The notes below the pieces were generated by a model. That model was given only the letters and a program-made list of their open reading frames with translations, ran no database searches and was not told the DNA's origin. The position numbers were made by a program, and so were the translations under genes. From Atractiella rhizophila (Eukaryota), in contig MU271420.1 in assembly GCA_021432655.1 (NCBI GenBank), positions 1 through 54,749 of the forward strand: a stretch of DNA of 54,749 nt, in the 5' to 3' direction. This document shows, in pieces, positions 11,580-54,749 of this stretch (position 1 is its first letter; each line of letters starts with the position of its first letter).

Positions 11580-14500
11580 ATGTCAGGAGCCCGACAGAAG
11601 TGCGATTGCAGAAGATGTAGCTTACTTCCAGATAATCATCCTAAGCGATGGGTTGCAAAATCAACATTTCATTACCATCATCACCAATATCCTCACATTT
11701 CCACGTTTTTGAACTCTGCCTCAGCGCCAAATCAACCTCAAGGATCACTTTCAGATCAACAATTTGATCTTGCTCCCAGTATTGACAATGGACACTATCT
11801 GTCAGAGAAAAGTGAACAAACAGCACGCTTGGGTTCACGATCACCTATGCTGTGAGTAATATACATCTTAAATTAGTTGTTTGCCTAGTAAATGTTATTA
11901 ACAATTATATAGGCGATCTGAAGATGAGGTTATACCAGGAGTACAAGTTAAAGCTCACCAATCGAGTAAGAGGGAAACTTCACGCCTTGAACTTTCCAAA
12001 ACAACCAGTGGTTTTCTCTATGACGACACAATCAGGCATCCTGTGGAGGACTTTCAATCTGATCCTGATGTAGAGCCAGAAGATACTGAAAATGAACGTC
12101 TGGGTCACTGTGAACAACAAAATAGTATGAGCCCAGAAGATTCACCATTACTACGCCCTGAGTTCAACTATGCGGACGAGCAACTGGATGATTTGATTCT
12201 TGCTGAAGAGGAAGAAATGGCTGAGCTTCCGAGTGTAGAGGAAAGTGGGATGGATGTGGATGAGGATGTAGATGATGAAGAATCTGATAACGAATGGTAA
12301 GGATTCCTCCTATCATATAGAAAGGTCTGATTAGAGGATTACAGTGCATCGACTTCGTCAAATATCTCTGCTGATGACGTCCTATCTCTCTTCTCGGATG
12401 ATGGCCATGATCCAGGCCCCAAGCCAACGGAGCCTCCTTCTGGTCCAAGTATCCTGACGGAAGAAAAGCTTTGGACACTGAAAAACCTTCGAGCATGGGT
12501 TGTCTCTCCAAAAGCGACCGAGGCATCCTACGAGGCTCATCGAGTAAATCTTGAGGAGGCACTTGGATTCAAAATTGGGTCATTCTACATAGCAAAAAAG
12601 CTCCTCACAGACTTAACAAAGCTTCGCCCACAGTGGAGCGACCAGTGTGTAGACACTTGCTTAGGATTTACTGGTGAAAAGGCATCTCTGGACAAATGTC
12701 CCCACTGTAGTGAAGCAAGATTTACAACAGCACGATCGAAGAAGACAGGAACTTCTCTCCCAATTTCCAAGGTGCCTCGCCGCCGATTTGCTTATCTTAG
12801 TTTTCTTCCTCGCATCCGAGCGCTTCTTGACAATCCAGAAACAGCAAAGACGATAGGAAACTTTGGAGACCTGTTAAAGAAGAGCGTTGAGGCTATAGAT
12901 AAAGCTCAGAAGGAGTATCGGGACTGGTATGATGGCAAGGTGCTTCAAGACCTATACATGTCTTCTCAGAAGGTCCTTCAAAATGATCCTCGCGAAACAG
13001 TGTTCTACGCTTCAACTGATGGTGCTTCCTTACAACTCCGCCGTGCCGATAGCAATGCTTGGGTGTTTATCCTCATAGCATCGTGCTATGATCCGAAAGC
13101 TCGTTATCTTAAGGAGCACCTCTTCCTCCTCTGCATTGTCCCTGGACCAAAAAACCCAATCGATATCTCTTCCTTTTTCTATCTCTTTTTTAAAGAGATG
13201 GCAAAAGCAGCTACTGGGCACTGGCTCTACGATCGCTTCAAAAGGGAGTGGTTTTTATGGAGAGCATGGTTATTAGCACTGCTTGGGGACATGTTGGGAT
13301 CAACGAAGTTTAATGGGTGTACTGGCCATCAGGGAAAGTGTGGTTGCAGGTATTGTTGGCTTCATGGCCAATTGAAGAAACATGGGATGAGACCATATTA
13401 CTACACATGGAAAACTGTCAAATATCCCGATGGAACTCTCCCAACGACCTCGAAACGACCTGCACACTACAATCCTTATGACAAGACCCTTCACCGCACA
13501 CCAAAACAGTATTATAAAACTCTTCGACAGCTAGAACAAGCTCCAACTGAGGCTGCAAGAAAGCGAATCAGCAAAGAGACGGGCATCAAGCGAGCTTCAG
13601 AGTGTGCTGGTCTGCCAACTTTTATCGATGTCGCCACCTTTCATCCCCTTGACATTTCTCACCTCACCCTTGCTGATTTGGCAAAACTTATTTGGCGAAT
13701 CTGGACTGGAGAACTGAAAGGAAATGACTCTCACCTCGAACCTCTCATCCTCTCTGCGACTGATCAAGTCTGGATTGGAGAAAGAATGAGAGACGCGAAG
13801 AAGGATCTTCCTGCTTCTTTTGCTGCAACTGCTCCTCGTCCAATCCATGAGGCTGTCAACACCCAGTACAAGATGGCCGAGTGGTGGGCATTTATTGATT
13901 GGTATTCATTACCTCTTCTTGTTCATCTGAACGCAGATGAGAGAGTTTTAATGAATTGGAATAACTTCATTCATGGATTTCGACTTGCATGGCAGTATGA
14001 GTTGACAGAAGAAGAGGTGGAGACGATGGAGACATATTTGAATCAGTGGGCATTAGGTTGGGAGGAGCTTTATATTCGAGACGAGTCGTCAAATATTGAA
14101 CGAGCGACAATGAACTTCCACACTGTTTCCCACATTGCCCTTAACATTCGAAATCATGGACCTCCAATCCTTTCTTCTCAACTTCCTTGCGAACGGGTCA
14201 TTGGTCAGTCAAAAGAGTCAATTACACAGAAAGGAAAGTATTTCGAGAACATGATTCAGAATATGATCCGCCGCGAGCAGTTTAACATCCTCAATATTCA
14301 ATATCCAGATGAAAAGTTCGCTTTTCGATCTTCACGGACTCAGAATCTTCTGGCCCATGGTGTCACCTGTGCGCTTGTTGCTCCTCGCTGGAATTCCTTT
14401 CCTTATAAGGCAGTGCAAGGAGTTGAAAAGGACTGGTGGAAGAAGGAGGTAGCTGTTCTTCGCCAGTTTTGTGCCAGGAACCGCCTCAAAGTTCCAGAAT

Positions 14501-15046
14501 CAGAAGAACAGTTTGAGGAGCTCGCTGCTAGTTGGACAAGATGGGGAAAGGCAAGACTAAGAGGAGGAAGCATGCTGCGTTCAGTACGACAAGAGAGCTC
14601 AACTCGTCAGATCACACGGTCTAGTTGCAGGATGCAGGTAAGTCTTTCCTATAATTATGTGCTTTTGAATAAAAAGCTTGCAGGCAGTTGCAGACAATGG
14701 CGAAGCCATGTACTGTGATGTCTACTCTTTTGTCCAAATTGCAATCGGGTCTAGTTTATACAAGATCGCAGTTGTTCAGTTTTATAACAAGCTCAAAGCA
14801 TTTTCAGGCTGTGATAGTTTGATTAGGACCAAATTATCTGATGATTGGGGCGCTGTTCCTTTGAGGAGGATACACAGCGTAATTGGTGTATTCCAACTTG
14901 AAGATTATCATTACATTCTGCATCCACACTCTTATGCGTTTAGAAGACCCTTGGAGGTGCCAGCGGCTGTAGATTGGGAGGAAATTTCGGAGGAGCAACC
15001 GGACGAGGAAGACATTGCACTTGATCCAGCTGTAGACGATGAATAG
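11580..15046 (+). CDS. CACTA/EnSpm-type transposase (Transposase_21/Tnp2-like); spliced, apparently intact
   Basis: N-terminal CDCRRC..WVAKSTFHYH. Zinc finger DQCVDTCLGFTG..LDKCPHCSEARF (~12640-12725, in frame with the 12772 ORF). Core motifs STDG, IVPGPKNP.DISSF, LLGDMLG..KFNG..GHQGKCGCRYC, HPLDISH and QLPCERVIG. Introns at ~11853, ~11965, ~12297 and ~14638. Confidence 0.9.
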
Positions 15047-27138: not shown

Positions 27139-28155
27139 TCATTTGGCCTTGAACACTTTATCCCAAGCGATATCCTCAAAGTCTTCTGCGATCTGAAAAT
27201 TCTGTCGCACCTCGTTCGTTGCAATACCTAAACTACCTAACCACGAAAATATGCAATCCGTATACTCCGTCCAACGCTCAGCTGCTCCTTTCACCTTTTC
27301 GAAACTTTAATAGGTAGGGGAAGGTTGGAACGCGGAGAACAGACCTCTGACAAAAGTTTTTCTGGGAGAGGCAGTTAGGGACAAGACAGCGTCTGATAGA
27401 AGGGCAAGAATAGAAGGACGCACCTCTGCTTCCATAATCTTCAGGCGTGGTTTCGGTGAATTTGTCAAGCTCAAGCTTCAAACGGCGCTCTTCTAGATTC
27501 TTGGACTTCCAAGCCTCGAGCAACATGGTTCGCTCCTCCTTCAACAGCAGTCAATGCCTAAATCAACAAACAACCCATGCCATATCAAAGGAGGAGAAAT
27601 ACGTACTCCCTCCTCTTTAACCTTCAACATTTCTGATAACTCCTTTCGCACTGCTTCCCTCGATTTACCAACATCGACAACCTCCTTTCTCGACGCCTCC
27701 AACGCGTTTTTCACGGATATTGCAGCTGCAGAAGGGTAGGACCAAAAGTAATTCGATGTCCCTATCTTCTCTGAAAAGACCAGGCCGTCATCAACTAAAG
27801 ACTGTAGAATTTCTTTGATAGTCGGCATGGTGATCCCTTTAGCTTTGGAACACAGCTATGAAGAGGGCAGGGAAGTACGCGTTCAGGGCACCAAGGCAAG
27901 GAGGGGATTGAACCTTTTCAACTTCTTTCAGCTGATAAAACTCTTTCTGTTCCCATCAAAAGGTCAACAGAACAGCTTTTCTGCCGAGAAATTGTACAGT
28001 TTCGTGAAACCAGTCCAACATCCTGTCCAATACTCTGAGCTTAAGCGCAATCAAGAATGGTTGCAACTCGCCTGGAGCGTTTCTCGTCGTGAGAAAGACC
28101 TTTCGGAGCCTGAATTCGACTCAGCATGAGCACCTCTTTTCACTGTACCCACCAT
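27139..28155 (-). CDS. MND1: Meiotic nuclear division protein 1 (intact copy)
   Basis: Spliced by eye: M|APKGLSHDEKRSR|MLDWFHET|KEFYQLKEVEK|LCSKAKGITMPTIKEILQSLVDDGLVFSEKIGTSNYFWSYPS...AAERWTEYTDCIFSWL...FQIAEDFEDI. The first coding exon is ATG only; intron 2 has a GC donor. Confidence 0.9.
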
Positions 28156-28237
28156 ACTGTGCCTGTTCCGTAGTACCGTTGATCTGCGTCTCGTTTGCTT
28201 TCTTTTTGTGTCGCTCTTTTGATTGTTTTCAGTGGCG

Positions 28238-28260
28238 ACGCGTTGTAAATGCAGCACGTG
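28238..28260. promoter_or_regulatory. MCB (ACGCGT) plus E-box (CACGTG) upstream of MND1
   Basis: ACGCGT at 28238-28243 and CACGTG at 28255-28260. Both are retained in the identical copy (~33717-33739) and in the otherwise diverged copy (~29398-29420). Confidence 0.45.
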
Positions 28261-28527
28261 AGAAAAGATTGGACCTTATTCCACACGCAGGGGTCGTTTC
28301 TCGTTTCTCTGCAATGGAATGCTCAACGCTATCCATCACAATCAAGAGCCTTTTTGTTTTCGTCTTCTCTCTTCCCTCCACATCTAATGTAGGTCGAGGA
28401 TACGGTGTAAGGAACCCAACTGGAGAATATCGCTCGACGCAGGAAGACGAGAACCGTGACGACTAAAATACGAAAAAAGCCTGCAATTACTCACGTAATG
28501 TCCATTCCTACACTCAATCATTGCCCA

Positions 28528-29066
28528 TCAACACAAAAAATCTACCGCCTTCCCGAATATCCACACATTTCCTCCGAAATGAACCAAGCTGGCCAACCAC
28601 AGTTCCAGGAAGAGGGGTCGGGCTTTGATTTCGAGTTGGTAGGCTATTGAGAGCCAGAGTGCCTAGTGCAAAACAGATAGTTCGCATTGTGAGAAAGAGG
28701 ATGACGGGATTGGTAAGGACTAACCTGCGTCGCCACCCAGACTACGAGAAGTGGTAGCCAACGAAGGAGAGGGACGCGGGAGTTAAGGAGGACGAAAGGG
28801 AGGAAGAGGATGTACCAGATAAAATACTGTCACAATCTTCAGCCTCTTTCACGGCGAAATTGGTAGAAGCAAGTTGGACGAACCTGCGACGTGCAAACTT
28901 TGTTGAAAGTGACAAATACGAATGTTTGGAGGAACCAGCTGATGGCCATTCCATTTTCTCGTGCACCGTAGACGAATCCGAGGCCGAGGGAGAGTGAAAG
29001 TTGGGGGATGAATGCATAGAGAGATCCGTCGCTGAGCTTGGAAGTGAGGCTGGAAGATGAAGCAGA
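28528..29066 (-). pseudogene. Orphan 3' fragment of PIG-M/GPI14 (recent duplicate)
   Basis: Near-identical to ~34007-34545, covering the last exons ([13 protein letters not shown]..|[11 protein letters not shown]). It has no 5' half and joins abruptly to MND1 intron sequence at ~29066. Confidence 0.85.
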
Positions 29067-29067
29067 A

Positions 29068-29320
29068 GGGATTGAACCTTTTCAACTTCTTTCAGCTGAT
29101 AAAACTCTTTCTGTTCCCATCAAAAGGTCAACAGAACAGCTTTTCTGCCGAGAAATTGTACAGTTTCGTGAAACCAGTCCAACATCCTGTCCAATACTCT
29201 GAGCTTAAGCGCAATCAAGAATGGTTGCAACTCGCCTGGAGCGTTTCTCGTCGTGAGAAAGACCTTTCGGAGCCTGAATTCGACTCAGCATAGGTATCTC
29301 TTTTCTTGTACTCACCATAA
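29068..29320 (-). pseudogene. 5' fragment of MND1 (exons 1-4 only)
   Basis: 29068-29291 matches 27904-28127 (offset 1164). ATG|GTGAGT is retained at ~29318. Truncated within intron 4. Confidence 0.85.
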
Positions 29321-32619: not shown

Positions 32620-33634
32620 ATGCAGTGATTAGCTCCTGGAACCTTTATTCCAACGATATCCGGTCGAAAATATGTACTTCCTGCGCTCAGAAAATTTCCA
32701 CATGGTTCCTCCTTCGTTGCCATACTTTTTCAACGACCACTATCCAAAAAAATATGCAAAGTCTCCTGGATCTCTGTAAAGTTCAACACTCGCTCGTTGC
32801 ATTACCGAAACTAAACTAGGAAGAGGTGATCCGTAACTCCTGAACGGGCTCAGATGCTCCCACCTCTGACTCATTTAGCGAAGAAACGCAGAATAGACGG
32901 TCGCAAAAGGTTTTTCTGGGAGAGGCAGTTAGACAAGACGTCTGATAGAAGGGAGCAGAAAAGAAGGCACCTCTGCTTCCATAATCTTCAGGCCGTGTTT
33001 CGGTGAATGTCAAGCCTCAAGCTTTCAAACGGCGCTCTTCTAGATTCTTGGACTTTCCAAGCTCGATGGTTCTCCTCCTACGTACTCCATCCTCTTTAAC
33101 CTTCAACATTTCTGATAACTCCTTTCGCACTGCTTCCCTCGATTTACCAACATCGACAACCTCCTTTCTCGACGCCTCCAACGCGTTTTTCACGGATATT
33201 GCAGCTGCAGAAGGGTAGGACCAAAAGTAATTCGATGTCCCTATCTTCTCTGAAAAGACCAGGCCGTCATCAACTAAAGACTGTAGAATTTCTTTGATAG
33301 TCGGCATGGTGATCCCTTTAGCTTTGGAACACAGCTATGAAGAGGGCAGGGAAGTACGCGTTCAGGGCACCAAGGCAAGGAGGGGATTGAACCTTTTCAA
33401 CTTCTTTCAGCTGATAAAACTCTTTCTGTTCCCATCAAAAGGTCAACAGAACAGCTTTTCTGCCGAGAAATTGTACAGTTTCGTGAAACCAGTCCAACAT
33501 CCTGTCCAATACTCTGAGCTTAAGCGCAATCAAGAATGGTTGCAACTCGCCTGGAGCGTTTCTCGTCGTGAGAAAGACCTTTCGGAGCCTGAATTCGACT
33601 CAGCATGAGCACCTCTTTTCACTGTACCCACCAT
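32620..33634 (-). pseudogene. Second MND1 copy: 5' half identical, 3' half frameshifted
   Basis: 33080-33634 matches 27601-28155 (offset 5479). Past KVKEDG the intron is mostly deleted and the exons carry multiple small indels. Confidence 0.8.
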
Positions 33635-34006
33635 ACTGTGCCTGTTCCGTAGTACCGTTGATCTGCGTCTCGTTTGCTTTCTTTTTGTGTCGCTCTTTTG
33701 ATTGTTTTCAGTGGCGACGCGTTGTAAATGCAGCACGTGAGAAAAGATTGGACCTTATTCCACACGCAGGGGTCGTTTCTCGTTTCTCTGCAATGGAATG
33801 CTCAACGCTATCCATCACAATCAAGAGCCTTTTTGTTTTCGTCTTCTCTCTTCCCTCCACATCTAATGTAGGTCGAGGATACGGTGTAAGGAACCCAACT
33901 GGAGAATATCGCTCGACGCAGGAAGACGAGAACCGTGACGACTAAAATACGAAAAAAGCCTGCAATTACTCACGTAATGTCCATTCCTACACTCAATCAT
34001 TGCCCA

Positions 34007-35440
34007 TCAACACAAAAAATCTACCGCCTTCCCGAATATCCACACATTTCCTCCGAAATGAACCAAGCTGGCCAACCACAGTTCGAGGAACAGGGGTCGG
34101 GCTTTGATTTCGAGTTGGTAGGCTATTGAGAGCCAGATTGCCTAGCGCAAAACAGATAGTTCACATTGTGAGAAGAGAATGACGGGATTGGTAAGGACTA
34201 ACCTGCGTCGCCACCCAGACTACGAGAAGTGGTAGCCAACGAAGGAGAGGGACGCGGGAGTTAAGGAGGACGAAAGGGAGGAAGAGGATGTACCAGATAA
34301 AATACTGTCACAATGTTCAGTCTCTTTCACTGCGAGATTTGGGAGAAGCAAGTTGGACGGACCTGCGACGTGCAAACTTTGTTGAAAGTGACAAATACGA
34401 ATGTTTGGAGGAACCAGCTGATGGCCATTCCATTTTCTCGTGCACCGTAGACGAATCCGAGGCCGAGGGAGAGTGAAAGTTGGGGGATGAATGCATAGAG
34501 AGATCCGTCGCTGAGCTTGGAAGTGAGGCTGGAAGATGAAGCAGAGGTGAAGGATAAATAGATGGGGTAGAAGTAAGACGAGAAGTTGTGTCGATGGTCG
34601 AGGCGGGTGAGGTGGTAGAGGTAGGTGTGCGAGATGAAGGGGTATCCCCATCTTTCAATTTAGAAAATGTAAGTTTAGTGCAGAAACGAGGGATGAAAAG
34701 GCGTACATGCTGTACATGAAGCCGTTCAATGTCGCAAAAGTTGTCAAGCTGACGATTCCAAACCAAACCTGTCGCCAACAGAAAAATCGGGCAAACAATC
34801 CATTTTCTTCTCTCCTTCCTTTTCGCAAGTCGTCTTCTCTCTTGATTCTCGACAGCAAGCTACTCGCGTAAATGAAGGGATAGATCTTGAAATGAACCGC
34901 CGCTCCAAGGACGATTGCTGCTAGATTCCACCTGCCTGTCTCCGCCGCTGCCAGACAGCCTATGACGAGGACACCAAGCACGGACTCTGCGCTCCCCCGG
35001 GTGGAGATGTTGGCTATCATTGGATTCCAGAGCCAGACGAGGTTGACCATCCACAGGATCTTGCTCCTCTTCTTCTGATCCGTGAGAGGCACATTTTTGA
35101 TAAGAAGCTTATAGATAAGGTAGCCAATAATTAGGTCGCAAGAAGCAAAAATGAATTTCCCAAAAGAGTTGTGGATGAGGTGATTGGTGGTGAGCAAGAG
35201 CGCGAGGAGAGGAGTGTAGCGATAAGTTGCCCTTTGGTAAGGGTCTCCAAATGAAAATGATCTTTCGGTAGCATTCTGCAGCAGATTTTGAGGATGTAAC
35301 AGGAAGTAAGCGGCGTCGGTGAAGACCCTGTAGTCGATGTCCGTGTACTTGAGCACTGAATGAGCGTCGTGGTGGATAGAGTAGAGAATGAGGAAGAATC
35401 TTGCCAAAAAGGCGAGGAGAAGACTTTGGAAGAGATTCAT
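34007..35440 (-). CDS. GPI14: GPI mannosyltransferase I (PIG-M/Gpi14); multi-exon
   Basis: [15 protein letters not shown] (DxD motif), [62 protein letters not shown] and [16 protein letters not shown]. Stop at 34007-34009. Confidence 0.95.
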
Positions 35441-46160: not shown

Positions 46161-47283
46161 TTATATCCATTGCGCTTGGACAGCCTGGACAAATCCTTGA
46201 GTGGTGATTGGTACCACGGCTGGATTCAACTTCGAGAGACAAGCATGGCAAAAAGCGAGCCAGAACTATTACCAACCGCGTCAATTCTGGCTGTGAACAT
46301 GTGGAATATCAACGCACATCGTATATCCAATAAGAAATCATCTCTCTCTTAGGTTGATTCCTTATGAGGAGGTACCTTCCACAAGTAACAATAAGGAAGG
46401 CGATCTGAAGCCATATCAAGGTTGGGTGCACCGCAGAGATGAAGATGGATCCAACGGTAGAAAGACAGAGGACAGTAACGAGAAAGACGCGTGCTCCCCA
46501 AGGTGAGACCAGAGGGAACGTCTTTCGTCCTGCCGCTGCGTCACCAACGACGTCGGGAAAATCTTGAGCGTGCATCGTCAGCATGTTGACTAGCGCTGCA
46601 CCATGTCATATTCTCAGTTTGATTCAAGACAGACTGAATGGACGAACTGGAGAATACGACGGAGACGATCTGGTGGAAATTGAGAGCCTGACCTGCCGCT
46701 TTCGTAATCGCATGCGTCAGGACGAACCATCATAGATTGATGAAAACGTACTGGCTACAGTCATGCAACCGATTTCAAGCGCAGGAAAGCAAGCGCCAGC
46801 AAGAAAATTTTTTGCATAAAACTTTCTGCTCACTTCAAGGTCGTTATGAATCCAAAGAATGATGCTTAGCGAAATCGTAGCGTAGACCGTAGTTCTGCTT
46901 CCGAGAATGGCGGACTGAATGATGTTGAAAAAAGGCATGAACCATCGAATCCTTCGAGCTGTTTTTAAGGTCATCATCCCGCTCGGTATGGGTCGATAAG
47001 GCTTGTTGTTGATGTCTTCAGCCAACGCATTTGCTGTGACATAGTTTGGAATCAGGCACATGCAGTTGGGATTTAACGCACCGGAACTTTGATTTGAGAA
47101 ACACCATTCTGCTATCAAGCTTTGAAGCCAGAAAGCTGTCAACAATGTCCTGATGAAACCGGACCAGGGAACAATGGAGAGTGAAAATGCGAGCACAGGA
47201 AGTGTTACGGTTTTGATGTCAGAATATGACAGATAGTACAAAACTTTGGCCCCATGCCAGAGACTAGTTAATATGGTGGACAT
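46161..47283 (-). CDS. UbiA-superfamily membrane prenyltransferase / terpene-cyclase-like protein; multi-exon
   Basis: YSDIKTVTLP, CFSNQ...AEDINNKPYRPIPSG and HAQDFPDVVGDAAAGRKTFPL, with several hydrophobic TM stretches. Confidence 0.85.
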
Positions 47284-47892
47284 ACTGAGCTGTCAGAGTT
47301 GTTCACAGAAGTGTCAGCTGCGCTGAATCTTTCGGTAGAGGATGCAAGCTCGCTTTTATCTACGATGATTCTTAGGCATTACAGCCCTGTGCTACGCTGA
47401 TAAGTCAAGGGACGAGCCGGTTAAAAGGAAAAATTTCCCTAATGCGCAAAGCGGCTGCTGTGACTGCTTTCTGCATATCACGCACGATTAACTTCTAACA
47501 GTCTTTCCTCGCAAATCCTACGTCGGTCCCTGGAGCCCGTGAGTTAGACGCGGTGACAGTGTTTCCTTATTCTTTTGAAATGACGGTGCTGCTAATAGCC
47601 ATGCATTCGGGACTCCATTCGGGTATGGGCTTTGATTATCGATTTTCAGCATTCTCCATGCGATCAGGGCCAAAGTCTATGACAACGTGGGAATTTATCC
47701 AAAAAAATTGGATGATAGATCTATTTCCGCGCATATGTGATAGGATAGGATTGTCTGTTGTAACAAAGAGCGGAGGGAAATTTCTTTTTCTCTTCGGCAT
47801 CGGAACCTTATTCTGTTTCCTTGTTCGCCCAACTTCGCAGGAAACGGCACAAAAATTGATAATTACATGGCATTTCAAGATTCCAAAATTCA

Positions 47893-50140
47893 TTAATGTC
47901 TCTTCTTAACGTATACTTCCAATGGAGGATTGGTCATTGCCAAAAAGTCCCTGCTGCTGTTCAGAAACTTGTCCTCGATGAAACCATCTGAAAGTTTGAA
48001 CTCAAAGTGTTTCAGCAAGACCACCAACACAGTGCGAAGCTCCTCCATTGCAAGACTCTTCCCGATACAGGAATAGGCACCTACAGAATATTTCCTCACC
48101 TGTGAACGACCACATGAATGGATAACTCACCAGAGCTGAAGGGCACGGAAGCTTTTGCTTCAAATGTTTCCTCCTCAGGACGCGAGGACAACCACCTCTG
48201 AGGTCGAAACTCATCAGGGTGATCGAAATATCTCTCATCTCTCGCAACTGCATAGAATGGAACGCAAACGGTGGTTCCAACGGATATAAACCGTCCATCG
48301 ATCAGTAGCGGAGTATCGACAATCTCTCGTGGCAGGCCAGAGCTAACTGTGGGATTTAATCGCTGCGATTCGTTGATCACCGCTGTGAGGAGAGGAAGGG
48401 AACCTGTAATGTTGTTGAATAGACAAGACTCTGTGACAGAATAAGACAGACGAAGGTTTTGCAAAGAAATGTCGTCAATCTCTTTGTCTGGAAATGCGGA
48501 ATCAATTTCAGCCTGCAGTTTGCTGAGCCAGCCGGACTGAAGGAGCGCGTAGAAGAGGTATGTTAAGGTGATCGCAGTTGTTTCTCCTCCTGCATAACTA
48601 CATTAGTATTTCAATATGCATGGAACTTTGGCAAACCAGCAATTATTGCTAAAGCAGCGTCATTGTACAGAGAGTATTCGTCAATGTTCTTCCGCTGTTT
48701 ACTTCCTTCGTTCTCCTCGTCTAGCTGGCCATTCACACATCAAATGACCATGAGCGTCAAGGAGAAGGAACCCACTAGAAAGTAATAAAGATCCTTGAAT
48801 GAATCAGCATTTCTGTTCGTCCTCTTTTTCACCAGCTCTTCAGCCTTCCATCGCAGCCCGGGTTGGATCAGTGGACTGGGGAAGCAGAGAGAATAACGGG
48901 AGGAGAAATTGCATGTGTCCTAGTGCTTTGACGAGTCGCATGAGCAGACCTATGTCTCGTAGGTAGCCATTCTTGTCTTCCCCGTCACGCATGAGGGTGA
49001 AACCTCCGGAGAACGTGAGTTCGCTATCGAAATTCGTCAAAGCGAAAGAAAGTTAGGGTGGTACAAAGACGAACCCCATGACGTCGACCTAAGAGGTGAT
49101 TTATCTTTTTCTCCTCACAATGTTGAACATGGAAAGAAGGGACATACCTGAAAGAAACTAAACCAATCGGACAAGCAAATGGGTCCATCTTCAGATAAGC
49201 GTTCCAGATGATGTACGAGCTCAGAGAGTTTTGCTCTCAGTATGGGTCGAAAACGCGCGAGACTTTTTGTTTCGAATTTTGTCAGATATCTGGAAATATG
49301 TTGAAAGAAGCGCACCCTTCGATCCCTAGCAAAGGTTCCCACATCCTCCTCCTTTCAGAATGAGGTCCCTTCTCGCGCATACCCATGAGACCTGAGAAGT
49401 GTTATGACAGGAACAGAACGGGAATCAAGAAGTAATCGAACTTACTCTTGACTCCGGGATGCTTGGGATCGTCCAGAGCATCGTACCTACTTTCATCCTT
49501 GGCAAGGGGCTATTATGTGATAAGAAACCTGGACGTACCAATTGCTCCTTTTCACATTAGCTTTGTACGAATAGACCTCCTTTAAAGCGTCCACACTCCG
49601 TATGGAGAGGTGGTTGGGGCCTATTGCATTCTCTCAGATATTGATCACCGATAAAGACATAGAAGCGTACCAATCCTGACAAAATCACCGTACTTTTCGT
49701 GCAGCTCTTTCATGTCCCATCTCTCTGTCCCTTTGACAGCCTGAGGAAGGTACCACCACATGTTGAGTTTCGCCAGCTTTGGTCCTGGGAAAGGGGCGAG
49801 TGGATGAAGGGGCGAAAGTCGATAGAGGAACACTGCCGTGAAAACAAAGCACAAATAAAGTGCATACGAGAGCCAGAAGGAAGCAAGTTGTGGGAGATTG
49901 GGAAAGGCATGGTCAGTTAAGACTGACAGATAGTGGGATAGTATCGGCCATAGGACAATAATTGCTCGATAATATGGATATGAGAGGTAGATGTACTGCC
50001 ATAGCACAACTGCGTCAGCTATTACCTTGCAGAGACGGGAGCCGTATAGAATGTTCACGCACATTTAGAGATAGGGAGATACAGACCACAGCACCCAGCT
50101 TCTCCCACTGAAACATCATGGTCACAGTAGAGGCCATCAT
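47893..50140 (-). CDS. Cytochrome P450; multi-exon, apparently intact
   Basis: YRLSPLHPLAPFPGP, LHEKYGDFVRIGPNHLS, I-helix AIIAGGETT, K-helix INESQRL, FRPQRW, and heme motif PFSSG|AYSCIGKSLA. Confidence 0.92.
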
Positions 50141-51405
50141 GTTCCATCGGATGCCGTTCCCCAATCATACCTTATAACATGCCGTTATACTTTCACCTAT
50201 CTCTGGATAATTTGAGGGAAAATTCCCCATTGAGTAAAGAAAGACGTTGCTGTTCGTCTTGTAACCCTAATTTCGCCATCCCCTCCGTACCTCGACGTCC
50301 TTCTCCAGATCTTCATCTGCGTGTTCTCCGTCACCGTAAGCTAATCCAAATTTGCATGGACAGTGATTCGGTGGTGTGGGGGTATTGACCATTGAAAGCG
50401 GCCATAGGGAGGGGGGTGTAGAGTTGAGAAGCGAGGATGGAAGATCCGGCGCAGAAACTCACTGTAGTCGAAGTTTGGGAGGGAGTACCTGAGAATGTGT
50501 TTGAAAAGTGTTTTCCAGTGCCGATTTCAAATGCAGTTGGACTGCACAGGTGCTCATCTATTGTGGGAAACAGAGTAGGAATAGATAGGTACAAGCACAA
50601 GCACGAAGCATTCAAACACCTATTGGTAAGTATAGGCAGCGAGATAGCCATAACCGACTCGGAATGAACTTTGCCTGGAAAAGTCATCTCTTCTTCGGTT
50701 TAAACAAGCAGAAGCTGCAAAGAAAGAAAGAAGGAAGAGAGAAGTCCACACCAACGAATAATGAAGCGGCGTTACAGGAAATCCAAGTAGAGGGGATTAT
50801 CTCTTATTACCATGAAGCGTGTTTGCCATAGATCACTTTCAGGCCCATTTTCCCGTTTTCATATTCGGTCCACCTGATATAAAGGAATGAGCTTCACTTT
50901 CTGACGCCTCTGCGTTATACTACTAGTCGGTAGATGTGTGGTGTAGACACAGGGAGATTGAGCATTTATGACGCCTGACGGCCTGACGAGCAAGTCGAAA
51001 CTGAACAAACGCAACGCACCAAGATCCCACCAATCATGTCGCGACTTTACGGCTTTCACAATTGCAACACTGTTCAAATCTCCATCGTCTTAACATTTGC
51101 AAATGTTGAGGCTGTTGAGGCCTTCGAAGAGTTGGAGACAAATGACATGGCTGCAAATGAGGCTTCCAATGATTGTCGGAACATATTACCTTTTCAGGCA
51201 ATCTCCGGTTCATCGAGGGTGGCTTGAAACGAAACATCATCGAGACTCGCCACGGATCAAAGTGACGAATTTGGTGCATCATGAATAGGAGGCTGTGGAA
51301 ATCTCAGGACAAGTGTAGGATTCTTGGGGAGACGTGGATGTATTGTAAGCTCTTTATGTGAAGTGGTAACATTGCTCCGTTATCAATTGGCTTTCTATCC
51401 TGAAT

Positions 51406-53486
51406 CTAAAATACATTTGAGATTTTGTCTTGCTCTTTCAACCATCCGTCCAACTTTCCAATCATTCTCCAAGCCGATCCATTTTCCCTGGCGCTGTCGA
51501 AGAAAACTTTTCCCCACCCTTCCACTGTTGTTCTCATTTTCCTCCCTTCTTCTCCTTTCAGAATTAGCTTCAGGGCATTTTTCAATTCTTGTGCTCTGCT
51601 CTCGTCACTTTGGTCGATTGTCGTATGCTCTGCCCCCGTTACGAGATCTGGACGAAAGGCGATTGTGTTTTGGGGACCAGTGCGGAACTGTAGAAGCTCG
51701 ATTCCCACTTTGAGGTTCAAGGACAGATGGAGAGCAGTCAGGGGCTCTGTGTATAGGGGATCAATTCGATGAGCATGCCTAGGACCAAATGACTGACGGT
51801 CTCCTCCAAAAGGAAGGACGATCATCGGAATCCCACAAAGCATCGTTTCCATGACCCCGTTGAGGCCGCCGTGCGTCAGGAACGCACCGATAGCCTTTGC
51901 TCATTCTTGATTATATATGATTTTGCGGAAGATAACAAGTTGCGCACCTCGTGTCTTAATACTCTCGTTTGATCGACCCATTTGCTAAATCTTCCCTTTC
52001 CTGACTTCTCTGCCATTTTCTGCAGCTCCGGATCTACGGAGGCAGCTGGCGAAGCAGTCGCGAAAAGGAAAGGTGTGGGAGGATCGAGCGATAGCAATGT
52101 CGTGACGATAGTACGCACGATTTCAGGCGTTGTGATCCTGCATCCCCTTGTCATTAAAAGTACAGTGTGGAAATGAGAAACAGCACGGCCAAACTATGGA
52201 GCCAAAGCTCACATATACCACGCTTCGCTTTCCATATTTCGCCTGCATGTCGTCCAGGTATTCGATGTTAAAATCCGGCTCTGCGTCCTGTTGATCGTTC
52301 ACTCCAATGTGAGCAAAGGCAGGTGGAATTCCTGTGACATGCTGTGGCAGTGAGTTCCAGGTAGACGGCGCCAGCTGAGGACCAATAAGGAAGAGCGGTT
52401 TCTTCCCTTCCTTTCCATGGATGCGCAACCCTGCCTTGAGCCCCGCAGGAGGCTCCTATTCAACATATGAACTGCCTGCGCGTACTCAGTGAGACTGGTC
52501 CGACTTACGAACTCTTCAATGCTGTGAATGATCAAGGCGTCACTCTCATTGCTCAGTCTGAGCATTTCGGGGAGCGCCTCAGCTACTATCCGGCTTTCTA
52601 AAATCGCTTGTGGAGCTTGTTCGAATTCATATCGATCTGGAAATCCTGGGTATCGATGCATACCATCTTTGAACCGTGGATTGTTCCGCATCATCTACGA
52701 ACCGTCTCGTCAATCGATTAGACAGACAAAGAGAGCAAAACCGACAGTATCCATTATTCCGATCAAGTCTTGCTCAGAAGGATTAGAGGAAGTCGAGACC
52801 AAAGCCTGGGCGTCAGCAGGGACGTTGCCCATTCCTCCATCTTCTGGTCCCGCTGGCGTCCTGTATAGCTTTCATTCTGAGGAAATCTCCGAGGAGCAGA
52901 CCACATACTGGGTCCATCCATAGAGGCTGGTGCTAATGAAATCAACGACTTTGAGGATGTGCAATCCTTCCTCTTTCAATCGTATCCCCCAAGCTCCTCC
53001 CATGCAATCCTCGAAAATGACACAAGGCTTTCTCACAGCGATTCCGAAGTCGTGTATCACTCCATTTACATCTTCAAAAGTTGTCTCTTTCTCTACAGAG
53101 TGCAGAACGCGGCGAAGCGTACTTCCAAGATCTCTCTGTGCAGCGGAAAGGAGATTGAGAGGTACTCCCGGTTCTGGTGGATCAGATGCATTTGCTGCGA
53201 TGAGGCGAAGTGATTTGCATTGGGTAGGAGAGAGATACCACTTGTCAATTTCACGATTCGCCTGCTCGAGGAGGAAGGGTGAGAGAATAATGCTGATGGT
53301 GTAGTCAGGGAAGCGGAGGAGGAGACTACAGCTCAAAGCGATGAGACAGCGGCAGTGTCCCTTTTATTATTTCATCATTATCTGTTCAATATGGAGAGAG
53401 CAATCAAAGGAAGAACTTGCCCAGAGTGGAATGGTAGTACATAGAATATGCGGGCCTGTTTTGGGAACGGAGTCGGGAGGTCCCAT
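51406..53486 (-). CDS. UDP-glycosyltransferase (GT1 family); multi-exon
   Basis: N-terminal HILCTTIPLW|GH (catalytic His position, joined across a GC-AG intron), SVVYVSFGS, and PSPG-like box KWVDQTRVLRHE|AIGAFLTHGGLNGVMETMLCGIPMIVLPFGGD|QP. Confidence 0.92.
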
Positions 53487-54749
53487 GCTTGGACAGCTGA
53501 GTGCTTGGCTGAGTGCGGCTGAGCTACAAGTAGGATGAAGTCCATCATAGTCGCGTTAAGTTCTTCCGCACTTTTATAGAACAGCTGTAGAAAGCCGTGA
53601 AGTCCGAGGACGCCCCAACGAAGGGTAAGTATATGCTAACCATCGGGTCCTCAAAACTATTCCGCTAGTCCGACGGAGGACCCTAGCACTTTTCGCTTGA
53701 TATTCTTTCAAATCCGCACGCTTGCTCTGATTTTCTTCGCGTGTATACGACGTTAAAGCAGATAACTGGCAGGGGCAGAGAGAAGGCCCAAAAGTTTTCA
53801 TCAAAACCGCAGAAGCTACTACAACGGGACGGGAGGTTTGAGACGGCCTCGGTGCCAGGACTAAGTTTTCTTGGTAGTCAGTTTCAATGCTGTACCAGCG
53901 CCGGGATGGAGTCGGTCCGTACGTCGCCGCACGGTTAGGTAAGGTTTTAGCCATTTACCCACAAACGGAAGCCGAGAGTTAGAACAACTGCGACGCGGTG
54001 GTTTGTACAGGAGGGTTTATGTCGTACCAACCCCCTTACAAAACTCTAGCACTTGCTGAGGTTCGCGCAGGCGGTGAAGAGGGAAGAGCGGTTTTCGTCG
54101 ATCGTCGGAGAGCTCCCATCACATCTCTAGTCGGACTCTAAACTCTTTCTTCAAAAGTTACCGTCTACCTAACCGTAAACCAAGTGGTTGTCGCTATTTT
54201 AACTAGCGCGTCCTCTCTAAGACCCTTGAGTTGAGGACGAGTTCAAAGCCATGATTAAGTGGAACCCGGTTCTTCCACTGTACCATAGGCTTGTTCAAAC
54301 GTTGACAGCGTCGCTCTAACTCTTCACCGGCACGTACTGGGATTGTTCAAACGTCCGAGACAATTGCAGAGTTTCCCTATACGCGTACTTACGAATGGGT
54401 CGATCCTCACGTTTGCTGTTACTAGGGAGAGGCTAAGTCCGACCTGTATAACTATCCGTATCCGGTTGATCATAAGTCGCATGCAGAGAGCGAAACAAGT
54501 ATATGAAGGGTAGAAAAATGTTTGGCTCTATGAGGGTGCGGAAGATGATGTAGGAACGACTTCTACAAGCGCGTCTTCTTTCCGATTAAAGCCAATTTCT
54601 AGAGCTCCCTTCGCTGGTGGCTATCTCCTCCGCCGCCTCCTACGTGAAGCGTTTGGAACCTATAAATGTTCCCTCGAGGGGTGCCCCTTCTCACTTCTAG
54701 GCGTGACATCAGCCCGTTAGAGGATTATTCGCGAACTAAGATTCTCCCT

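Follow-up and report, generated by a model that had tools for sequence, protein, structure and literature searches.

A candidate terpenoid-glycoside gene cluster around a UbiA-type cyclase-like gene in Atractiella rhizophila

The root endophyte Atractiella rhizophila carries, towards the end of the 54,749 nucleotides (nt) of contig MU271420.1 that form the window analysed here, three neighbouring genes that we read as part of a terpenoid-glycoside cluster. They encode a UbiA-type, terpene cyclase-like membrane protein, a cytochrome P450 and a GT1-family UDP-glycosyltransferase (UGT1), and in the second haplotype of the assembly the array continues into two more UDP-glycosyltransferase (UGT) genes, UGT2 and UGT3. 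In our preferred reading, to which we give a probability of about 0.5, farnesyl diphosphate (FPP) would be converted to a sesquiterpene, which would be hydroxylated and then glycosylated. Judged by its motifs, the predicted UbiA protein sits better with the UbiA-type terpene cyclases of fungi than with the prenyltransferases of primary metabolism, and a duplicated copy of the P450-UbiA pair elsewhere in the genome points to a link between these two genes; glycosylation of the product is inferred from adjacency. Below, C-numbers denote contigs of the same assembly, the window's own contig being C241 and the second haplotype C7.

Gene order and extent of the array

The region is intron-rich fungal DNA in which the genes were spliced by hand. 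Four of five listed sequencing runs were analysed: X1, a DNA run, and X3, X4 and X5, which were taken as RNA solely from the absence of introns at canonical sites. The splice models bore out an earlier sequence-only reading of this DNA, which had described three adjacent, co-oriented minus-strand genes (UbiA-family, P450 and UGT) preceded by housekeeping genes; the left neighbours are FAM32A, GFA, F-box, SNARE, PIG-M, ORC4 and DAHP synthase. The genes of the array and its left boundary are as follows.

46161..47283, minus strand: UbiA-type terpene cyclase-like gene, 305 amino acids (aa), open, 5 exons (47283-47082, 47033-46752, 46698-46648, 46595-46318, 46265-46161); identified from the splice model, which equals public protein P0001, and from Pfam, fold and RNA contigs
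47893..50140, minus strand: cytochrome P450 gene (12 exons) whose product has an N-terminal membrane region; its frame is disrupted in the window haplotype; identified from the splice model and comparison with C7
51406..53486, minus strand: UGT1, GT1 UDP-glycosyltransferase gene, 571 aa, 8 exons, open; the model equals public protein P0152 (PF00201, E 1.6e-18)
C7 212552-210765, opposite strand: UGT2, model without stops, 553 aa
C7 208703-210629: UGT3, model without stops, 555 aa
45059..45617, minus strand: housekeeping gene, FAM32A-like, that bounds the array on the left (PF08555, E 2e-6); spliced contigs in X3, X4 and X5

C7 is collinear with the window locus (97% over 11 kb), and all five cluster genes, the UbiA gene included, are open in it. 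They stand there in the order UGT3-UGT2-UGT1-P450-UbiA, flanked by NudE-like and FAM32A-like genes, with one 179-codon frame separating the NudE-like gene from the array, and in both haplotypes UGT1 is co-oriented with the P450 gene and lies directly next to it. The idea of a minimal three-gene cassette did not survive this comparison. The array runs past the end of the window, and following the sequence beyond 54.7 kb, as the sequence-only reading had advised, leads in C7 to the two further open UGT genes upstream. Its remark that no prenyl-diphosphate synthase is visible proved correct for the cluster in both haplotypes; the three polyprenyl synthase loci of the genome sit elsewhere (C18, C64/C849 and C4/C816). 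Neither a clustered geranylgeranyl diphosphate (GGPP) synthase nor several P450s, as would be expected of an erinacine-type cluster, were found between the NudE-like and FAM32A-like genes. Neighbourhoods were scanned through the 25 longest frames per 10 kb, a scan that genes of short exons could escape, and tblastn with P450 and UGT queries covered those two families.

The UbiA-type protein and its relatives

P0001 scores 56.5 bits against PF01040, above the cut-off of 34.2, which places it in the UbiA superfamily. Its AlphaFold model (predicted local distance difference test score 93.5) has nine long helices arranged in a UbiA fold, and the top Foldseek matches of this model are UbiA homologs, with template-modelling scores of 0.63 to both DGGGPS (6m31) and AfUbiA (4tq4). 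Because searches of the PDB turned up no fungal UbiA cyclase structure, the nearest solved folds being prenyltransferases, the fold match cannot tell a cyclase from a prenyltransferase.

The two motifs quoted in the sequence-only reading, NQ..EDxxNKPxRPIPSG and QDFxDxxGD, are present once intron 1 has been removed. In an alignment of 80 sequences, P0001 keeps all nine invariant columns and 13 of the 15 near-invariant ones, the positions not kept being W224 and D263. Motif II, QDxxDxxxD, corresponds to Q189-D190-D193-D197 and is found in 136 of 151 family sequences, whereas the prenyltransferase motif NDxxDxxxD is absent from P0001 and from all 151. According to a study of Antrodia tps1 and tps2 (PMC9835599), it is this difference that separates UbiA terpene synthases from prenyltransferases. 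P0001 also falls far under every cut-off of the NCBIfam prenyltransferase models (best 42 of 313 bits), and blastp gave no significant match to the COX10-like and partial COQ2-like proteins of the genome. Separate genes for these are present, COX10-like on C410/C99 and COQ2-like in pieces on C1908 and C707, which we take to be such from our own interpretation of their sequences. Given the missing NDxxDxxxD, the NCBIfam scores below cut-off and the lack of a blastp match, we rejected a COQ2 or COX10 identity for the UbiA protein. Motif II and the exclusion of the prenyltransferase motif speak for a putative UbiA-type cyclase, and the sequence-only reading of the three genes is, as an overall interpretation, partly supported.

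Intron 1 of the UbiA gene (window 47034-47081) is 48 nt long, in frame, stop-free and placed inside motif I, and it is kept in one X3 contig and removed in X5.

HMMER returned 894 relatives of P0001 at E up to 0.001, of which the best 150 were listed; a word-index search made with the intron-bearing UbiA frame recovered P0001 alone (one of 190 candidates). Among these best 150, the closest relative (47%) is a paralog in the same genome and the others are 25-37% identical, and the Atlas clusters nearest to P0001 are fungal UbiA proteins. The relatives within the genome lie on ten contigs that pair into five loci, with no stops in the modelled copies of four of them or in public protein P0002, which represents the fifth. 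In a tree of 45 homologs chosen by rank and length, with a COX10-like outgroup, the five Atractiella proteins group together as a single clade (support 1.00) with a long stem, and all five have His at position 130. The window protein and that of C208 are sisters (support 0.88; 55% identity), and the C208 UbiA gene follows immediately downstream of a P450 gene that is the nearest paralog of the window P450 (64%), in the order seen in the window. Since sister cyclases and paralogous P450s occur in the same order on C208, the predicted P450-UbiA pair is one that has been duplicated as a block.

C208 18431-22139 and 24164-26700: paralogous P450-UbiA pair next to an efflux gene of TRI12/MFS-like type (weak matches), together a further candidate for a terpenoid mini-cluster

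Copies of one UbiA-cyclase paralog, 93-98% identical, are present on C25, C68, C560 and C2, where the copy on C2 is incomplete and adjoins a Helitron-like frame.

To look further afield we surveyed metagenome contigs, where the best 80 of 333 relatives fell into 57 groups, 28 of them with at least 8 kb of sequence. A P450 lies beside 12 of these 28 distant UbiA loci, a count that, given identities of at most 35%, is to be read as a family survey and not as a synteny test. Three of the contigs (L112, L069 and L056) each carry two or three tandem UbiA-cyclase-like genes.

The P450 and UGT genes, their transcripts and their haplotypes

Catalytic motifs were found in all three window genes, as the sequence-only reading had stated, but the reading frame of the P450 is broken in the window haplotype. 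The gene retains the motifs AGGETT, ESQR and FSSGAYSCIG, and its C7 allele (P0154) is open at 553-554 aa and matches PF00067 at E 1e-60. Using the exon 2 supported by RNA, the window coding sequence comes to 1666 nt (1 mod 3); its first stop falls at codon 305, and the break can be placed.

48870..48876 (near 48873), minus strand: one extra base shifting the P450 frame, missing from C7, X1 and X3

The runs that lack the base are the DNA run X1 (depth 142.9/142.9) and the spliced run X3 (9.23/9.23), and over 1138 bases no more than 4 substitutions separate the X1 allele from that of the window. An allele this similar without the extra base implies that the break is either a recent null allele or an assembly error, with neither X1 nor X3 matching the window haplotype exactly. 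Public annotation P0153 (494 aa), which spans the break by means of a long intron, falls 59 aa short of P0154 (553 aa). We rejected an intron that bypasses the break: 39 of 50 hypothetical introns in the fitting length class restore an open frame, but the sequence in C7, X1 and X3 is a plain exon minus one base. A start of exon 2 at 50009 (acceptor 50010) was likewise rejected in favour of 49995 (acceptor 49996), which is backed by the end of an RNA contig and by P0154. Expressing the window's annotated 494 aa P450 would thus mean expressing a model that skips a frameshift, and the C7 allele is preferable.

UGT1, whose first intron is GC-AG, has the hallmarks of the GT1 family, with His24 in PLWGH and a PSPG-like sugar-donor box ending in GGDQ, and among solved structures its best relatives are small-molecule UGTs of plants (E 1e-16). 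Following a rule from plant enzymes, we take the final DQ of the box to suggest a glucose-type donor. There are about four UGT places per haploid genome set; elsewhere, the UGT2-like paralogs have aspartic protease, sugar transporter or ribosomal protein genes as neighbours, and no terpene gene.

All three window genes are represented by spliced contigs in X3 or X5; these contigs show transcription rather than levels or an expression ranking, and the missing P450 cover in X4 counts as no evidence. For UGT1, all seven introns are removed in X3 and intron 7 in X4 and X5; for the P450, several introns are removed in X3 and introns 8 and 9 in X5; and for the UbiA gene, intron 1 is removed in X5 and intron 4 in X4. 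Ratios of nonsynonymous to synonymous polymorphism (pN/pS) between the haplotypes are 0.15 for the UGT, 0.18 and 0.13 for parts of the P450, and 0.30 for UbiA, the last resting on only 12 changes; judged by the two haplotypes, all three genes are under purifying selection.

Two stretches beside these genes differ between the haplotypes.

50250..51230, minus strand: DNA between UGT1 and the P450 gene, different between haplotypes, with a spliced X3 transcript (intron ~51019-50558)
53555..54749, no strand assigned: haplotype-specific stretch upstream of the UGT1 start, abutting an N gap, with no match in C7 or elsewhere in the assembly

The transcript from 50250-51230 may be a separate RNA or an extended leader of the P450 mRNA, which would then include a 20-codon upstream frame at 50230. 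Between UGT1 and the P450, C7 carries at 215335-216275 an inserted 0.94 kb segment copied (94%) from the N-terminal portion of HBS1, the gene of C807/C97; this segment is not in the window, and loose ends suggest that X1 and X3 carry this copy too. Where the window has 53555..54749, C7 leads on to UGT2 and UGT3, and loose ends of X1 and X3 at 53528 match C7. The N gap follows the window end (C241 54750-56464), and after it C241 resumes inside UGT3. Further along, C241 64863-67968 repeats C241 56465-59297 at 94.6%; the repeated sequence takes in the 5' part of UGT3 and a portion of the NudE-like gene, and represents either a tandem duplication or mis-scaffolding.

Elsewhere in the window, near-identical repeats with the same open frames (27752-29119 and 33231-34654) flank an F-box gene, and a 795-codon frame at 12331-14718 weakly matches Transposase_21 (CACTA-like). 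C239 15769-23441 and C136 14148-23553 hold class I terpene synthase genes, with a P450 some 7-9 kb off.

Pathway model, known systems and alternatives

In the terpenoid-glycoside reading, the nine-helix membrane UbiA enzyme would bind a prenyl diphosphate through Mg2+ held by D74, D190, D193 and D197, as its motifs and family suggest, and would ionise it and release a terpene hydrocarbon or alcohol. Primary metabolism would most likely supply the substrate as FPP, and the product would be a sesquiterpene; the diterpene cluster for erinacine (eri) has its own GGPP synthase whereas the Atractiella cluster has none, which is why we favour FPP over GGPP. The membrane P450 would then hydroxylate the scaffold, a role suggested by conserved linkage, with the C7 allele as the carrier of this step since the assembled window P450 does not stay in frame. 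Sugar from a UDP donor would finally be added by UGT1, and perhaps after it by UGT2 and UGT3, as their adjacency suggests. The putative UbiA-P450 link is supported by the duplicated C208 pair together with the P450s at 12 of 28 distant loci.

Like Fma-TC, the HEx cyclases TC1-TC13 and Antrodia tps1/tps2, the locus combines a membrane UbiA core bearing QDxxDxxxD with a neighbouring P450. The HEx study counted 326 clusters with a UbiA-type cyclase, of which it put 13 that had a P450 close by to the test (PMC5895447), and Tps1A with a P450 and a methyltransferase yields oxidised bisabolenes (PMC9835599). Unlike the HEx clusters, the Atractiella locus has UGTs, the HEx main text (supplements aside) making no mention of 'glycosyl'; the taxa in the table of that study are Ascomycota and mushroom-type basidiomycetes and do not include Atractiella. 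Compared by motif and not by identity, P0001 differs from the named UbiA cyclases in a motif I that is two residues longer and in His at the probable Tyr position. With COQ2, COX10, DGGGPS and chlorophyll synthase it shares the fold and weak sequence similarity, but it lacks NDxxDxxxD and scores far under the curated cut-offs. UbiA terpene synthases also occur in red algae, according to a 2026 preprint.

The combination with glycosylation has precedents as well. The eri cluster of Hericium erinaceus and the rim, cya and bom clusters have in common a UbiA-type synthase (EriG), P450s and a glycosyltransferase (EriJ) and lead to terpenoid glycosides; eri has its own GGPP synthase (EriE), three P450s, one glycosyltransferase and a diterpene product, whereas the Atractiella cluster has no prenyl synthase, one P450 and three UGTs (PMC8463280). 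The likeness is one of gene composition and not of orthology to Eri proteins. In the brasilane (bra) cluster of Hypoxylaceae, the cyclase BraA is a soluble class I enzyme and not of UbiA type. The three core genes of bra again join a cyclase to a P450 and a glycosyltransferase and lead to sesquiterpene glycosides, but bra is an ascomycete cluster, and its BraB transfers N-acetylglucosamine (PMC8403587). Atractiellomycetes belong within Pucciniomycotina (title of PMC7225582), and in the literature searched, mostly without subscription papers or the supplements of PMC5895447 and PMC9835599, there was no report of this locus or of UbiA terpene genes in Atractiella or Pucciniomycotina. The pathway logic is thus already known, from erinacine, brasilane and HEx; the lineage and the enzymes are new.

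Several observations weigh against the terpenoid-glycoside reading. UGT1-3 are only 36-39% identical to one another, a deeper split than that of the duplicated P450-UbiA pair, and share intron positions; the C208 pair has no UGT by tblastn; and three of the five cyclase-like loci have neither a P450 nor a UGT within ~8-10 kb on each side, where the contigs reach. No UGT was found at any of the 28 distant UbiA loci, nor at any of 39 by a motif scan that recovered eight of nine control UGT loci. The intergenic DNA is unstable between haplotypes, and a search for a shared upstream word gave none beyond chance, the best 6-mer being reached by 35 of 200 shuffles. On sequence grounds, the UGT array looks older than the P450-UbiA pair, and the UGT link appears weaker than the P450 link. 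Possible, though with distinctly lower odds, is a two-gene module in which UbiA cyclase and P450 make an oxidised, unglycosylated terpenoid, while the older tandem UGT array glycosylates other compounds (plant phenolics, xenobiotics). The three deep UGT branches with their shared introns argue for such an arrangement, as do the UGT2-like paralogs at loci without a terpene gene, the pump in place of UGTs beside the C208 pair, the zero count at distant loci and the HBS1 fragment between UGT1 and P450 in C7. It would nevertheless have to accommodate a UGT1 that is co-oriented and directly adjacent in both haplotypes, the splicing of both UGT1 and UbiA in the shallow runs X4 and X5, and a chance of 0.006-0.009, ~0.01 or less, that one of five cyclase loci would fall within two genes of a UGT, a figure that assumes uniform placement and gene numbers and is post hoc.

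The active site of the UbiA protein and the yield of comparable clusters must be set on the same side of the scale. Motif I of P0001 (N64, A68, D74) puts its D two residues later than the published NXXX(G/A)XXXD, a spacing common to 53 of 100 homologs with a readable motif, the published spacing being present in 45. The column matching Y155 of Tps1A, an equivalence drawn from spacing (56 vs 55 residues) and not from alignment with Tps1A, is His130 in P0001; it is Tyr in 113 of 149 homologs and His in 27. For Tps1A, mutation shows the Asp residues and Y155 to be required, loss of Y155 abolishing activity (PMC9835599), and products came from only five of the 13 tested HEx clusters (PMC5895447). 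We regard it as unlikely that the UbiA protein is non-cyclising, releasing an acyclic terpene alcohol or olefin or prenylating an acceptor, with the P450 and UGTs tailoring the product. That the Atractiella clade is long-stemmed and at most ~37% identical to proteins outside the genome (best 150 of 894), that P0001 departs from the family consensus (Y to H130, W to S224, W to S232, for example), that its nearest solved folds are prenyltransferases and that the S. commune UbiA cyclase TC9 yields sesquiterpenols in the HEx study would all suit this view; NDxxDxxxD is absent, however, there is no acceptor-making gene next door, and the basidiomycete aromatic prenyltransferase of pleurotin is a COQ2 homolog at 33% (PMC11574748), whereas P0001 has no match to the partial COQ2-like protein. 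Less probable still is a decaying locus whose product is no longer made. The frameshift in the window P450, the insert directly upstream of UGT1 and the X3 contig that keeps the in-frame UbiA intron 1 inside motif I would all be expected of decay, but five genes are open in C7, pN/pS is 0.13-0.30, the transcripts are spliced, and the near-identical X1 P450 allele without the extra base makes the break recent or an error.

A bolder extension of the terpenoid-glycoside reading, which we hold to be improbable, is that a five-member clade of His-type UbiA cyclases has expanded within Atractiella, and that the cyclase, the P450 and the three strongly diverged UGTs of this locus together build, on a new scaffold, a di- or tri-glycosylated sesquiterpenoid, a saponin-like molecule of the root interface; if true, this would be the first UbiA-cyclase pathway in Pucciniomycotina found in the literature searched. 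If the terpenoid-glycoside reading itself is right, the locus would provide a compact, testable route to a terpenoid glycoside in a subphylum for which that literature holds no UbiA terpene pathway, and biocatalysis would gain three new fungal UGTs along with a cyclase clade of divergent sequence. The pathway logic being established, the gain would be new chemistry and not a new principle.

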